NCBI GenBank assembly: GCA_934148985.1
Contig: CAKPDO010000002.1
Span: forward strand, 7,163 to 71,162
Length of the DNA: 64,000 nt
From: an uncultured Clostridia bacterium
Lineage (GTDB): Bacteria > Bacillota > Clostridia > TANB77 > CAG-508
Direction of reading: 5' to 3'
Every line of letters starts with the position of its first letter. Position 1 is the first letter of the stretch. Position numbers and translations under genes: made by a program. Below are positions 38,068 to 43,796 of this stretch, piece by piece. Below the pieces are notes generated by a model, which was not told where the DNA came from, searched no databases, and saw only the letters and a list, made by a program, of their open reading frames with translations.

Positions 38068-38886
38068 TCATTTACATACCATCATAGCAATCAAATAAAA
38101 TAAGAAATGCTGTACTGGAAAAACTGCGTAAAACAATACTTGAATTACTTTATTTTTCCTTCCTCTTTCTCCATTATAAAAGAAAAACGGAATAGCTGTA
38201 TAAACTAAAGCATATTTAAAGCCTGGATGATATGAAGAAAAATCTAATGAACTCACAAAAGATATTTCTATCAATAATACGTATACTATCCTCATCAAAT
38301 AATACTTAAACTTACTTTCGAAATGTCTTTTTGAAAACAATACTTTCTTGTCTTTATCCATCAAAATTTTTTCTATAATATATAACTCAGTACACATAAA
38401 TGGTATTCTCATATCAAACTCAATATCAACTAAATTATATACACATATAATTATCGCGATAATCATTAACCTAAGCATTACATTAATTTTTTTACTTAAT
38501 TTAGGTATTATTTTTTTATATTCAATCATAGAAATAAGCATCAGTGACAATGTATAAGAAAATAGAACACCAAAATATTCATTTTCCCTAGTATGATAAT
38601 TTTTAAAATAAATCTCATTTATAATTCCTAATACAAGTAAAATAACTTGTGTTACAGTAGCTAGGCAAAATATTCTAAATATATATTTTTTTATATCTTT
38701 AGTATAAAAAAAGCCTTGTACAATCAAATACAAAAATATAGGCATAGCCAGACGACCTATGCTCCTCATCACATAATAGTTGTCTGGCTTGATTTTGCTC
38801 ACAAAATAGCATGCAACATGGTCTATTAACATTGCTATAATAGCAATTATTTTTAATACATTTCCATTAATTTTTATCTTCATCAT
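38068..38886 (-). CDS. TraX family polytopic membrane protein (acyltransferase-like)
   Basis: 272 aa; N-terminal LKIIAIIAMLIDHVA... is typical of TraX-family proteins. Last gene of the vanW-dltA-like operon. Confidence 0.65.
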   Translation of the reverse strand: MMKIKINGNVLKIIAIIAMLIDHVACYFVSKIKPDNYYVMRSIGRLAMPIFLYLIVQGFFYTKDIKKYIFRIFCLATVTQVILLVLGIINEIYFKNYHTRENEYFGVLFSYTLSLMLISMIEYKKIIPKLSKKINVMLRLMIIAIIICVYNLVDIEFDMRIPFMCTELYIIEKILMDKDKKVLFSKRHFESKFKYYLMRIVYVLLIEISFVSSLDFSSYHPGFKYALVYTAIPFFFYNGERGRKNKVIQVLFYAVFPVQHFLFYLIAMMVCK

Positions 38887-39649
38887 CTTTTCTCAATGCC
38901 TTTGGCATGCTTTCTTCTTGATTTTCTTTCATCATTTTTCTTTTTTGTATTCCCTTTTTATCAATTGCAATAATAACAGAAACAATAACAATTGCTAACA
39001 CACACATTCCAATAATTATAATGTAAGTTTTATGTGACTCTAGAAAACTTACAACTTTTTTGTTTTCTTTAGATGTTTTATCTGTTGCACTTATTTGTTT
39101 ATTGTCTATTACTGTTGTTTCTTCTTCTTTTTGAACATTTTCTTGCTCTACGTTGTTATTTTCTTGTAATGTATTACTTGCAGTGCTTTCATTAGCTTCT
39201 TCAATTTTATTATTTTCATTAATTTCATTTTTTACTGATGTATTATTTTTCTTTGTTATGCTATCTTCTTTGTTTGCTTCTGTACTTGTAGATTTTTGAT
39301 TATCAACTTTAGAACCTGTAGCATTTGAACTTGTCGCATCAGCACTTGTCGCATCCTGTTTATTCGCATCTGCACTTGTTGCATTCGAGCTTGTGGCATC
39401 ATGATTTGCATTTGAGCTCGTGGCGTTACTACTTGTAGCATCAGCGCTTGTTGCATCTGTGCTTGTAGCATCTGAACAAGTTGCGCTTGCTGCTAAGCTA
39501 TATAGATATCCCTCCAATTTATTTATTTTACCATTTCCACATATAATCATTGCTATACGAGCTATAGCCAATATTATAATCAAAAAAACTATTAACTTTA
39601 CATTATATAAAACTTTATTCTTATTTTCTTTCATTTCTTTTTCCTCCAT
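38867..39649 (-). CDS. Bitopic membrane protein with a Ser/Thr/Asn-rich repeat ectodomain ((D/N)ATS(A/S/T) pentapeptide repeats)
   Basis: 260 aa with N- and C-terminal TM helices flanking SDATSTDATSADATSSNATSSNANHDATSSNATSADANKQDATSADATSSNATGS. 15-nt periodicity is visible in the DNA at about 39290-39480. Its start overlaps the upstream gene stop. Confidence 0.65.
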   Translation of the reverse strand: MEEKEMKENKNKVLYNVKLIVFLIIILAIARIAMIICGNGKINKLEGYLYSLAASATCSDATSTDATSADATSSNATSSNANHDATSSNATSADANKQDATSADATSSNATGSKVDNQKSTSTEANKEDSITKKNNTSVKNEINENNKIEEANESTASNTLQENNNVEQENVQKEEETTVIDNKQISATDKTSKENKKVVSFLESHKTYIIIIGMCVLAIVIVSVIIAIDKKGIQKRKMMKENQEESMPKALRKDDEDKN

Positions 39650-41183
39650 TTTCTAAATTTGTTTCTTCACTTGTTGCTAATCCATGTATTGCCATAAGTG
39701 TCCAATAAATAGGTGTTACAATTACTACCCATAAATTAAAAAAATCTTGTATAGCATAACATAGTATTCCAATTAATAATACAGTTGAATATTTATTTCT
39801 GTTTTTTATCCCATTTATAAATTGCAAAATCAAAAAAACAATATAACTTGTGAACCCTACAATCCCAATATTTATAAGCATAGTTATATAAACATTAGCT
39901 GCTGTATCATTTATTGTAAGTTCTCCTAATAATTTCACATCATTTGTATATTTATCCATAAATCTTACGGCAAATGTATCTGGACCACTTCCTATTAAAG
40001 GATATTCTTTTACTAATTTAAACGCTCTTTTCCACAAAAATACCCTATATGTTCCAAAATCGTCATCAAAATTTCCATGCAATAATTCATGTATTTCATA
40101 TAAAATTCCACTTTCAAAATTTATAAAATACAAACTCAAAATAGATACTATAGCGAGTATAGCTATTCCACCATATATAAATTTAGCAACTTTAGTCCTA
40201 TTTTCTATGTTATATTCATTTTTATAAAGCATATATGCTAATATCCAAAATACAAACGTAATTATAATAAATATTATTGCAATTGTATTTATCTGAAAAT
40301 CTAAAGTCAACATTCCTATATCATAGTGATATCTTGGATTTATTATAATATTAATTCCAAGACCTAATATAATCATAGAAAATGCAATTACAGTTCTTGC
40401 TAACCTTTTGCTATTACTTAATATGAACGGACTTATTATAACTAATACTGCTAAAAATGCCACCCTGCCACTCATTACATTTATTATAATAAATATAAAA
40501 AATCCCATTGATATTGATGCTAAATGAAGTAATTTATATTTTTTATCTTCATCTAAAAATATAAATGAAACTGTCGATATTGTTAAATATATACAATAAA
40601 TAGCAGATATAAAATCTATATTTCCTATTGTTGCCATAAAACTTACATTATGTGTTCCAATTCCATCTTGGTACATATTAAATGGATTAAATCCAATATA
40701 CTGAAGAATTGCAATAAAACTTATGCAAATTGATGATATAGAAAAATATGTAATATAACGTTTTCTAAACTTTCCAAATATTGTTATCATAAGAAAAGTC
40801 ACACAATATAATGATATTGTTATTAGTCCTTCCGCTCTACCAACTCCAACAAAAAGATTATAGTCTTCAAAATATGGTGACAAAAAACATGAAACTATAT
40901 TTACTATCCAAAACACAATTCCTGCAATTTGATATTTTTTTAGTTTAACATCTTTCAAATATCTTATTTTATGAAATATATAATAATATATCAAAATTAT
41001 AAGATTTATCGCTATATAGCTTACAGACATTCCTAAAAATACTCTATATTTGCATTCAAGTATTTTAAAAAATCCCATAGAATCTATACTTAGTGGAAAT
41101 AACATAATTATTACACAAATATATATTTCTGTAATCCTATCTAGTATGCTTTTTTCTTTTTCATAAATAATTTTTTTATCCAT
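39621..41183 (-). CDS. O-antigen ligase/polymerase family (Wzy_C-like) polytopic membrane protein
   Basis: 520 aa, at least 10 TM; MSGRVAFLAVLVIISPFIL and ...YRVFLWKRAFKLVKEYPLIGSGPDTF...NVYITMLINIGIVGF resemble the Wzy_C/O-antigen ligase domain. Confidence 0.65.
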   Translation of the reverse strand: MDKKIIYEKEKSILDRITEIYICVIIMLFPLSIDSMGFFKILECKYRVFLGMSVSYIAINLIILIYYYIFHKIRYLKDVKLKKYQIAGIVFWIVNIVSCFLSPYFEDYNLFVGVGRAEGLITISLYCVTFLMITIFGKFRKRYITYFSISSICISFIAILQYIGFNPFNMYQDGIGTHNVSFMATIGNIDFISAIYCIYLTISTVSFIFLDEDKKYKLLHLASISMGFFIFIIINVMSGRVAFLAVLVIISPFILSNSKRLARTVIAFSMIILGLGINIIINPRYHYDIGMLTLDFQINTIAIIFIIITFVFWILAYMLYKNEYNIENRTKVAKFIYGGIAILAIVSILSLYFINFESGILYEIHELLHGNFDDDFGTYRVFLWKRAFKLVKEYPLIGSGPDTFAVRFMDKYTNDVKLLGELTINDTAANVYITMLINIGIVGFTSYIVFLILQFINGIKNRNKYSTVLLIGILCYAIQDFFNLWVVIVTPIYWTLMAIHGLATSEETNLENGGKRNERK

Positions 41184-42911: not shown

Positions 42912-43737
42912 TTCCTCTAATTTCTTCTACTGGAATTAAATCATAATCATACATTACTTTTGAATGATTATTTAATATTAATTCTTTTTTTATTTCCTGT
43001 TTTGTTTCTTTATCTGTTATTATTCTATAAACCTTACTATTTCTATAAAAAATTCCATTTTCATCTTTTGCATAATGATTATCTTCTTCAACAATTTTGT
43101 ACTTTTTATCCAATGTAACTGTACTTCTTATCTCTCCATATAACATAGTATCGTCTAGCCATACACGTATTTGTACAGGATTTTCTGTCACATTTTTGAA
43201 CCTGTAATCTAGAGCTTTATAACTAATTGATGTTCCAGTCCCAAAAGGTACTCTCCTTTTTACATCAGGAAACAGCGCATCTGAATGATGATGTAATTCT
43301 GTAACTTCAAGCGGGGTATGTAGAACAAGCCAGTGTATCATATTAGCCATTTGGCAAAGTCCACCACCTACTCCAGTTTTCATTTTGCTATTACTAATTA
43401 CCAAACCTTCTTTATAACCTTTTCTTTTTGTCGCATTTCCAACTAAATTCCAAAAAGAAAATTCTTCTCCTGGTTTTATAATTATTCCATCTATTTTTTT
43501 ACTTGCAAGAAGCAAATTTGTTACTTTATTTTTTTGTAACTCCATATCTACTCCATGCAAATTACGAAGCAATACTTTTGTATCACCTTTCCATATATAT
43601 TCTAAATTTTCTTTTTCTATTTTCTTTGCGAATTTTTTTCCGGCCTTAAAATCTCTAAAGTCTTTCTTTTTTGCTTCTTTAAATAAAGATATTTTATAAC
43701 ATATTGGCCCATATTCACAAAACAATTTTCTACTCAT
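42895..43737 (-). CDS. vanW: VanW family protein
   Basis: Start set at MSRKLFCEYGP. The core ...GYKEGLVISN...GVGGGLCQMANMIHWLVLHTPLEVTE...H resembles the VanW domain. Its stop overlaps the dltA-like start. Confidence 0.65.
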   Translation of the reverse strand: MSRKLFCEYGPICYKISLFKEAKKKDFRDFKAGKKFAKKIEKENLEYIWKGDTKVLLRNLHGVDMELQKNKVTNLLLASKKIDGIIIKPGEEFSFWNLVGNATKRKGYKEGLVISNSKMKTGVGGGLCQMANMIHWLVLHTPLEVTELHHHSDALFPDVKRRVPFGTGTSISYKALDYRFKNVTENPVQIRVWLDDTMLYGEIRSTVTLDKKYKIVEEDNHYAKDENGIFYRNSKVYRIITDKETKQEIKKELILNNHSKVMYDYDLIPVEEIRGNEDVK

Positions 43738-43768
43738 TATATTTCCCCTTTTTTGTTTTTCCAACTTT

Positions 43769-43796
43769 ATTTTATCATAACTAATAAATTTGTCAA
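43769..43796 (-). promoter_or_regulatory. Sigma-A type promoter of the vanW/dltA-like operon
   Basis: The minus strand reads TTGACA-N16-(TGA)TAAAAT, an extended -10. A hairpin terminator for the upstream gene lies at about 43847-43884. Confidence 0.5.

Follow-up and report, generated by a model that had tools for sequence, protein, structure and literature searches.

A conserved cassette of VanW, a DltA-like ligase and a DltC-like carrier in gut Clostridia, the putative core of a cell-envelope modification system

An operon that encodes a DltA-like adenylating ligase and a DltC-like carrier, with neither DltB nor DltD among its genes, raises the question of how the activated amino acid leaves the carrier and where it goes. 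Such an operon lies in a 64,000-nucleotide stretch of DNA from an uncultured Clostridia bacterium (GenBank assembly GCA_934148985.1, contig CAKPDO010000002.1, positions 7,163 to 71,162, forward strand), referred to here as the window, which has a G+C content of about 27% and matches human gut metagenome contigs, a Hadza sample among them. Its six minus-strand open reading frames (ORFs), in the order vanW, ligase, carrier, Wzy_C protein, repeat protein and TraX, had been listed in a first-pass annotation made from the sequence alone, and all six are present at the coordinates given there. That annotation proposed that TraX and/or the Wzy_C protein transfer the aminoacyl group across the membrane, to the repeat protein or to a glycan, and gave VanW no part in the process. 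Comparison with related loci points to a different organization, a conserved cassette of VanW, a DltA-like ligase and a DltC-like carrier (the triad) with an optional module formed by a WaaL-like ligase, a repeat protein and TraX. We tentatively read the operon as a cell-envelope modification system with a cytoplasmic VanW-ligase-carrier core, in which VanW may off-load the carrier onto an acceptor that is probably an envelope precursor at the membrane face.

Genomic contexts of the ligase were gathered by exact-protein look-up and by a metagenome scan with the ligase profile (80 loci), with the six window proteins as tblastn probes. The loci were collapsed to 56 lineages at ≥90% nucleotide identity, and the counts given here cover the lineages with enough sequence visible. 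At least 120 homologs of the ligase were found at 52 to 99% identity, some of them named Lachnospiraceae or Clostridia metagenome-assembled genome (MAG) proteins. The cassette is abundant in human and animal gut Clostridia and occurs in some Bacilli-class MAGs; VanW, the ligase and the Wzy_C protein each form more than 100 protein clusters at 90% identity, and the 56 nucleotide lineages come from one scan. VanW (42895 to 43737 in the window) was directly upstream of the ligase (41487 to 42911) in 58 of 60 loci, or 39 of 40 nonredundant lineages, and the carrier (41176 to 41448) was downstream of the ligase in 43 of 45 lineages. The Wzy_C protein, the repeat protein and TraX occurred together in 7 of the 15 lineages with at least 4.5 kb visible on both sides, and all five loci anchored on Wzy_C homologs (51 to 57% identity) contained the triad. 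Judged by these counts, the triad is the core, with this Wzy_C subfamily apparently dependent on it and not the other way round; the pattern also suggests that the accessory module depends on the product of the triad. The idea that all six genes are conserved together is thus upheld only in part: the full set does recur in unrelated flanks and rearranged orders, but the accessory trio is optional. The almost constant position of VanW upstream of the ligase, and its translational coupling to it, indicate a hierarchy opposite to that of the first proposal.

The accessory genes were found in at least four orders. The order seen in the window appears in three different genomic flanks. A second arrangement (L071) has the genes for the Wzy_C protein, the repeat protein and TraX followed by the triad; a third has the Wzy_C protein, a repeat protein of about 560 aa and the triad, with no TraX and with an opposite-strand phosphopantetheinyl transferase (PPTase) gene before the triad in two of four cases; and the fourth (L095) reads Wzy_C protein, repeat protein, PPTase, triad, TraX and D,D-carboxypeptidase. 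One short contig (L070) holds the ligase, the carrier and TraX, and both there and in L095 the TraX gene comes directly after that of the carrier. Recurrence in unrelated flanks and in rearranged orders is strong evidence of functional linkage. Where the trio is missing, the genes downstream of the triad are unrelated and of a housekeeping kind (enolase-like, aconitase/LeuC-like, GTPase-like and surface proteins, by sequence inspection), which argues against TraX or the Wzy_C protein as the general outlet. A specific recurring gene after the carrier was considered for these loci and rejected, as the genes there all differ. Because triad-only loci have unrelated flanking genes, the cassette seems to be self-contained, with VanW as the only candidate transferase. 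A DltB-like role of TraX, as first suggested, is conceivable where the protein is present, but TraX and the Wzy_C protein cannot be the general outlet of the carrier, since about half of the lineages lack them next to the triad.

The VanW of the window is a short protein of 280 aa that matches PF04294 with 144.5 bits (cutoff 27) and aligns to positions 32 to 263 of the 271-position vanW-gen model (NF033128), where its 212 bits fall below the cutoff of 365. No signal peptide or transmembrane (TM) segment was detected in the triad VanWs (maximum KD19 hydropathy ≤1.23 in 24 sequences), and no PG_binding_4 or further Pfam domain in the window protein; triad VanWs are therefore predicted to be cytoplasmic. 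Across the 24 sequences, 84 residues are invariant, including (in 280-aa numbering) Cys128 of GGGLCQ, His150/His151-Ser152-Asp153, Asp158 and Arg161/162. The clade is marked by the GGGxCQ cysteine, by HHSDALFPD..RR.PFG.G and by an N-terminal RKLFCE.GP (RKLFCEYGP in the window), and the Cys of GGGLCQ and the HHS histidines are invariant in 40 close homologs as well. VanW domains were described in 2024 as a second family of peptidoglycan L,D-transpeptidases (LDTs), with a Cys-His-Asp triad and an inferred thioacyl-enzyme (PMC11348318). In VanW the Cys follows the start of the Pfam domain by 58 residues, as C286 does in LdtCd4 (domain 228 to 357; PMC11348318, PMC12729407); the third catalytic residue was assigned by conservation alone. 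LdtCd4 and LdtCd5 of Clostridioides difficile are membrane anchored and extracellular, with PG4 domains, and of the 7 foreign VanW proteins tested, 4 were without LDT activity (PMC11348318). A 2025 review flagged the functions of VanWs that are not LDTs as unknown (PMC12729407).

More than 120 distinct clusters (at 90% identity) form the VanW clade, at 83 to 93% identity to the window protein, while the partner ligases are at about 50 to 65%. Such a difference suggests that VanW faces an invariant substrate or partner. In a library clustered at 50%, the triad VanWs make up essentially one cluster amid other short VanWs at 34 to 53% identity, and these related short proteins align end to end with the 271- to 275-aa glycopeptide-resistance VanW models, with scores below cutoff. 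Short VanWs at 41 to 50% identity occur in isolates without ligase or carrier. The pairing with a carrier system looks specific to the tight triad clade, and the short-VanW family at large looks cytoplasmic and envelope related. A sequence search of the PDB gave no VanW structure. The AlphaFold2 (AF2) model, built from 83- to 93%-identical homologs only, reached a pLDDT of 60 and was not used for fold searches; at this low confidence it predicts a basic N-terminal helix (residues 12 to 31).

Short VanWs outside the triad clade provided some observations of their own. On Bacillus mycoides plasmid p419 (L097, 2395 to 5825), a stand-alone short VanW with 41% identity is encoded right behind a BlaI/MecI-type repressor and an M56 (BlaR1-like) sensor protease, which suggests that it is induced by cell-wall-active antibiotics. 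The N terminus of one nontriad short VanW (P0397) passes the cutoff for YqeG-family HAD phosphatases, with a match just below it in another (P0399), and on Staphylococcus warneri plasmid NZ_CP054016.1 (9023 to 9676) a VanW match and an annotated YqeG-family phosphatase gene overlap. In Gram-positive bacteria YqeG, also named PgpP, is the enzyme that dephosphorylates phosphatidylglycerophosphate (PMC11804483), and these fusions connect some cytoplasmic short VanWs to phosphatidylglycerol metabolism.

The ligase (472 to 474 aa) matches the AMP-binding family with 192 bits. DltA is its best NCBIfam model, at scores below the curated cutoffs (429.6 versus 476 for NF003417 and 409 versus 560 for TIGR01734), and its nearest solved structures are also DltA (B. 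subtilis DltA, 3e7w, 287 bits, single domain). It is about 35% identical to canonical DltAs, which are 44 to 57% identical to one another. Pocket positions, mapped by alignment to B. cereus and B. subtilis DltA, read D-L-A-V-L-C-C-F-A in the window ligase, D-L-A-[V/I]-[L/I/V]-C-x-F-A in the main triad clade and D-L-A-M-Y-C-A-S-A in a distant triad clade (L067), compared to D-L-[M/A]-[T/V]-[L/M/F]-C-T-V-A in canonical DltA. Two of the nine positions, 322 and 330, hold residues outside those of three canonical DltAs, and only the change at 330 (Val301 to Phe) is fixed in the clade. Conserved in the pocket is the Cys equivalent to B. cereus Cys269, which we take to be the residue that selects D-Ala. 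Because most of the DltA pocket is retained, a small amino-acid substrate such as D-Ala, perhaps also Gly or D-Ser, is likely. The prediction of A-domain specificity that the first-pass annotation had recommended agrees with DltA at most positions, the clade-fixed Phe being the exception.

The carrier is 80 aa long from an ATG at 41418 or 90 aa from a GTG at 41448. Its PP-binding match (30.1 bits) is above cutoff, and DltC is its best NCBIfam model, with scores below threshold (55.8 versus 68 and 43.5 versus 52). It keeps the LDS phosphopantetheine-attachment site, and an alignment of 19 triad carriers with one canonical DltC revealed a clade motif, IEIQPTQ..TWR, that the canonical protein lacks. 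An Sfp/ACPS-type PPTase is encoded beside the cassette in three loci (L093, L094 and L095) and about 7 kb upstream in another (L006). A contig profile search of genomes with the ligase gave only an unrelated Aquimarina A-domain, and no condensation or thioesterase domain was found in the six proteins or in conserved neighbors. In one sub-lineage (L059, 4814 to 6245, and also L063, L064, L066, L068 and L062), the DltA-like gene is split into two overlapping ORFs. The N-terminal part, of about 209 aa, ends in ...HYILNEISRTKF before its stop codon, and an ATG some 30 nt before that stop opens the C-terminal part, of about 280 aa. Loci whose nucleotide sequences have diverged share this split site, a pattern that points to a conserved split gene or a required frameshift and not to an assembly error, with noise only partly rejected as an explanation. 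In L062, L064 and L066, VanW is in two frames as well.

The absence of DltB and DltD from the operon, already noted in the first pass, extends to the rest of the window and to the triad loci. Searches (tblastn) with canonical DltB from L061 gave a best E value of >1 in the window and, among 91 loci, matched only the canonical L061 and L080. With canonical DltD, the best E value in the window was 2.5, and the only match among the 91 loci was L061, a canonical locus with dltA-B-C-D kept together. The window does contain a second carrier-protein block (52328 to 62563, minus strand), with an AMP-binding plus PP-binding didomain protein (603 aa), a PPDK_N/PEP-utilizer protein (843 aa), a UbiA-family prenyltransferase, a second AMP-binding enzyme (495 aa), a GNAT protein, an unassigned 448-aa protein and a DUF3419 protein. 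The region from 52 to 62 kb was considered as a source of DltB- or DltD-like functions and rejected, as neither an MBOAT protein nor DltD is encoded there; from its gene content the block looks like a lipid or small-molecule pathway.

Turning to the accessory module, WaaL-type enzymes take undecaprenyl diphosphate (Und-PP)-linked donors. The polytopic Wzy_C protein (39621 to 41183, 520 aa) scored 52.5 bits against a gathering cutoff of 31.7. Its AF2 model (73 sequences) had a pLDDT of 86.5 and a pTM of 0.89, and Foldseek retrieved WaaL (7tpg_B) as the best PDB match (E value of 5.6e-7, TM-score of 0.57), followed by the SEDS proteins FtsW and RodA. The profile of the family gave no sequence match in the PDB. 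Invariant residues are E363, H369, D374, R380, R386, D402 and R407, with His369 and Arg380/386/407 inside the Wzy_C region.

The repeat protein (38867 to 39649, 255 to 260 aa) had been described as bitopic, but two TM segments are predicted, one at each end, with both basic termini inside, and the protein is predicted to be a membrane hairpin with an external loop. In the window its plan is TM1, EGYLYSLA, nine (D/N)A(T/S) pentapeptide-type repeats, a variable low-complexity region, VSFLESHK.Y, TM2 and a basic tail. Thirteen proteins from all arrangements share this plan, with EGY(L/M)YS(L/F)A followed by 5 to 16 (D/N)A(T/S)(S/D)x pentapeptides, and it is retained even where the Wzy_C protein is only about 55% identical. 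The underlying DNA is an array with a period of 15 nt (39317 to 39474, about 10.7 copies), and the divergence of its copies suggests selection on the peptide motif. An acceptor-like array near the membrane beside a WaaL-like enzyme resembles, by analogy, a dedicated transferase-substrate pair. TraX (38068 to 38886, 272 aa) is polytopic and matches PF05857 over residues 8 to 266 (65 bits, cutoff 25). TraX is a borderline member of the TmAT superfamily, whose proteins conduct acyl-CoA thioesters by way of a pore to extracellular acceptors, and its prototype, TraX of the F plasmid, acts on F-pilin (PMC12423673). All the family assignments of the first pass, the ligase-like and TraX-like ones included, hold in hidden Markov model searches with Pfam and NCBIfam.

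The genes of the operon overlap at their junctions (42895/42911, 41176/41183, 39621/39649 and 38867/38886), as described earlier, and the ligase start overlaps the VanW stop by 11 to 17 nt. A promoter-like site upstream of VanW (43769 to 43796, minus strand; TTGACA-16-TG-TAAAAT) has 11 of 12 consensus positions and an extended −10 TG, and a terminator-like hairpin with a T-run (37862 to 37881, minus strand) lies downstream of TraX. Both are consensus matches only; as such they are consistent with one transcription unit, in agreement with the single promoter assumed at the outset. The VanW ORF is also open from a TTG at 43764. The ATG at 43737, which gives the 280-aa protein, is most likely the start, given the gene call on an identical metagenomic contig, the N termini of homologs and the position of the TTG inside the −10 element of the promoter. 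Between the TraX stop and priA there is a match to the skipping-rope RNA motif (RF02924; 37899 to 37970, minus strand; 50.6 bits, gathering score 36.7), with the hairpin (37881 to 37862) at its 3′ end. This RNA was rejected as a component of the system, as it is not present in seven related loci, and is regarded as a local feature.

Directly upstream of the operon (43922 to 45599, minus strand) are genes for a PadR-family regulator and then a divergent FtsW/RodA/SpoVE-family protein (67 bits), with a promoter-like site of their own (45673 to 45645). The latter has an N-terminal "permease prefix"/HAAS-type domain, an unusual fusion of a SEDS-like protein to a PadR-partner domain, and the pair is not conserved beside the triad elsewhere. 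Another gene of the window (45729 to 46832, minus strand) encodes a 367-aa protein with an N-terminal hydrophobic segment and a sub-threshold C-terminal match to serpins (23.9 bits versus 27).

Apart from the system itself, the genomic contexts vary, and peptidoglycan genes recur in several lineages. The triad is found inside the dcw cluster, between a penicillin-binding protein (PBP) gene and murE-mraY-ftsW-murG, in L004; a MurD-like ligase is downstream of it in L030, and a Mur ligase and Ddl are upstream in L094. The D,D-carboxypeptidase of L095, FtsW/PBP genes near the triad in L009 and L016, and the FtsW/RodA-like gene directly upstream of the operon in the window complete this picture, which we regard as suggestive. 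No lipid-synthesis genes recur beside the triad. In L025 (9029 to 12495, minus strand), genes for a MurE-like ligase, for an Asp/Glu racemase and for a protein with weak ATP-grasp likeness lie together near the triad on the opposite strand, a set that resembles the racemase and D-aspartate ligase pair for Lys-D-Asp cross-bridges in Enterococcus faecium.

What, then, would the cassette do? In the scheme that we infer, for the off-loading by VanW as much as for which amino acid is used, what accepts it and how the accessory module takes part, the ligase would adenylate a small amino acid, D-Ala or one of similar size, and attach it in thioester linkage to the phosphopantetheinyl arm of the carrier, itself primed by an Sfp/ACPS-type transferase that some genomes encode beside the cassette. 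Soluble VanW would accept the aminoacyl group through its Cys, and a nucleophile of an envelope precursor on the inner membrane face would then receive it from VanW. VanW is a natural candidate for thioester off-loading because its family works through a Cys thioacyl-enzyme (PMC11348318). To consider it the user of the aminoacyl-S-carrier is also the parsimonious reading: VanW is the only other protein of the cassette, is coupled to the ligase, is predicted to be cytoplasmic and belongs to a family whose chemistry, a Cys thioacyl intermediate and transfer to an amine, matches that of thioester off-loading. As acceptor, a peptidoglycan precursor or another lipid-linked glycan is favored by the substrates of the family, the genomic neighborhoods and the WaaL-like partner. 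Where present, the WaaL-like ligase, the repeat protein and TraX might work extracellularly, on the modified lipid-linked product or together with it, and attachment of this product to the repeat array next to TM1 is one option.

Several points weigh against this scheme. Characterized VanWs are extracellular (PMC11348318), and as acyl donor they use a peptide bond at an L-centre instead of an aminoacyl thioester. Short VanWs encoded without ligase or carrier indicate, from gene content, that the basal activity of the family is independent of a carrier, and the PgpP fusions point to phosphatidylglycerol, not peptidoglycan, as a possible substrate class. The Val-to-Phe change affects a position invariant in canonical DltA, so the amino acid is uncertain. 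Adjacency to peptidoglycan genes is found in only a minority of lineages, and the VanW model, at a pLDDT of 60, is too poor to inspect.

Other explanations have to be weighed against off-loading by VanW onto an envelope precursor. That TraX and/or the Wzy_C protein replaces DltB and DltD, so that the aminoacyl group of the carrier crosses the membrane and esterifies Ser/Thr residues of the repeat protein or a glycan, with VanW as an accessory, seems rather unlikely to us. The analogy is chemically sound on general grounds, since the MBOAT protein DltB uses DltC where other MBOATs use acyl-CoA. The outward passage of acyl-CoA thioesters by TmAT relatives and the action of F-plasmid TraX on a protein (PMC12423673) fit as well, as do TraX genes directly after the carrier gene, the recurrence of the six-gene set in differing flanks and orders, and a repeat array that is conserved and near the membrane. 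Nevertheless, TraX and the Wzy_C protein are not beside the triad in 8 of the 15 lineages, the arrangement with the ~560-aa repeat protein has no TraX at all, and an invariant, highly conserved and translationally coupled VanW is left unexplained; we also know of no WaaL-like enzyme that uses carrier-protein donors. Far less probable still would be ordinary D-alanylation, with a DltB/DltD pair supplied by genes elsewhere in the genome and an incidental linkage to VanW and the membrane proteins, or the synthesis of a small nonribosomal metabolite. DltA and DltC are the best models for the ligase and carrier, and the DltB and DltD searches cover only the window and the loci; but both proteins score below curated cutoffs, the ligase clade is remote from DltA with a pocket change of its own, the carrier shows a distinct motif, dltA-B-C-D stay together in canonical operons (as in L061), and the linkage to VanW extends across 56 lineages in many contexts. 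A metabolite is further at odds with the lack of condensation and thioesterase domains, and the insertion inside the dcw cluster of L004 argues against secondary metabolism.

If VanW does off-load the carrier, the acceptor might instead be a membrane lipid, either phosphatidylglycerol, in a carrier-dependent counterpart of the tRNA-dependent aminoacyl-phosphatidylglycerol synthases, or a polyprenyl phosphate, which would yield a lipid-linked aminoacyl donor for use outside the cell. The fusion of some short VanWs to PgpP/YqeG (PMC11804483) and the basic N-terminal helix of the low-confidence VanW model are in line with this, and a lipid-linked donor would suit a WaaL-like enzyme; yet the fusions belong to other VanW clades, lipid-synthesis genes do not recur beside the triad, and the only demonstrated VanW substrates are peptidoglycan stem peptides (PMC11348318), which makes a lipid acceptor improbable in our view. 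We give slightly less credence to VanW as a cytoplasmic L,D-carboxypeptidase or transpeptidase acting on a UDP-MurNAc- or lipid-linked tetrapeptide, with the carrier-bound amino acid as amine acceptor, or as an editor of mis-loaded carrier. LDTs can replace the terminal D-Ala by another D-amino acid and can have L,D-carboxypeptidase activity (PMC12729407), and short VanWs are found in vanB/vanG clusters (PMC11348318) and, with no carrier, behind the BlaI/BlaR1-like pair of B. mycoides, occurrences that suggest a stand-alone activity of short VanWs on peptidoglycan precursors. However, the peptidyl-S-carrier so formed would have no obvious fate, and an editing thioesterase is not expected to be the most conserved and invariant member of a cassette.

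A broader form of the envelope-precursor reading, speculative and rather doubtful, is that short cytoplasmic VanWs, those of vanB/vanG clusters included, act inside the cell on peptidoglycan precursors as acyl transferases, with D-aminoacyl or peptidyl donors activated as thioester or ester, the cassette being the first carrier-dependent route and the WaaL-like ligase then linking the unit to the repeat array. If true, an amino acid would be added to peptidoglycan or a lipid-linked precursor without tRNA or an ATP-grasp enzyme, and about half of the lineages would have a covalent link between a membrane protein and the wall through the (D/N)ATS array. Literature searches that paired VanW with DltA or a carrier protein, or DltA/DltC with an O-antigen ligase, found no published description of the cassette, in keeping with the earlier remark that no system of this composition has been characterized. 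Current annotations ("D-alanine--poly(phosphoribitol) ligase," "VanW family" and "O-antigen ligase family") are misleading for its members. VanW as the obligate partner of a thioester carrier provides a concrete biochemical hypothesis for VanWs without LDT activity and may bear on the VanW of glycopeptide-resistance clusters, whose function has long been unknown. If confirmed, the system would represent new envelope-biogenesis chemistry, with a second acyltransferase superfamily recruited to a carrier protein after DltB among the MBOATs. Envelope aminoacylation influences surface charge, resistance to antimicrobial peptides and host recognition, and the cassette might have physiological effects of this kind.

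Among known systems, one that the cassette resembles is DltABCD(X), which D-alanylates teichoic acids in Firmicutes. The stand-alone ligase and small carrier have their best matches in DltA and DltC, and the Asp, Leu and Cys residues of the DltA pocket are kept. In contrast to it, the cassette has no MBOAT DltB or DltD in the window or related loci, its ligase combines ~35% identity with the Val-to-Phe change, its carrier bears IEIQPTQ..TWR, and its obligate partner is a VanW predicted to be cytoplasmic. PglL/TfpO-type O-oligosaccharyltransferases act on dedicated protein substrates, and the accessory module is reminiscent of these enzymes and of WaaL in its Wzy_C domain, its WaaL-like fold and the neighboring Ser/Thr-rich, acceptor-like membrane protein, but the cluster lacks glycosyltransferase and flippase genes and the sequence is too divergent for a PDB sequence match. 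TraX shares with the F-plasmid protein a polytopic PF05857 domain above cutoff, in a family whose prototype acylates a protein; it differs in being chromosomal, without conjugation genes, in its linkage to a carrier protein instead of the presumed acetyl-CoA, and in being optional.

With LdtCd4 and LdtCd5, the triad VanW has in common the PF04294 catalytic domain, a Cys at the same offset, a conserved His and nearby acidic residues. Those enzymes are anchored and extracellular with PG4 domains, whereas the triad protein is short (280 aa), soluble and devoid of PG4, and it adds the N-terminal RKLFCE.GP motif and genetic coupling to a thioester carrier system. The accessory VanW of vanB/vanG clusters has the same short architecture with no signal peptide; the window VanW falls below the equivalog cutoff (212 versus 365), belongs to a separate tight clade beside a ligase and a carrier, and has no vanH, vanA/B, vanX, vanY, vanR or vanS neighbors. 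Finally, Fem/MurM, which are tRNA dependent, and the ATP-grasp D-aspartate ligase Aslfm are cytoplasmic transferases of peptidoglycan side chains. The proposed likeness is that a peptidoglycan precursor at the cytoplasmic face would receive an activated amino acid, with the difference that the cassette would activate it as a phosphopantetheinyl thioester and use an unrelated catalyst.

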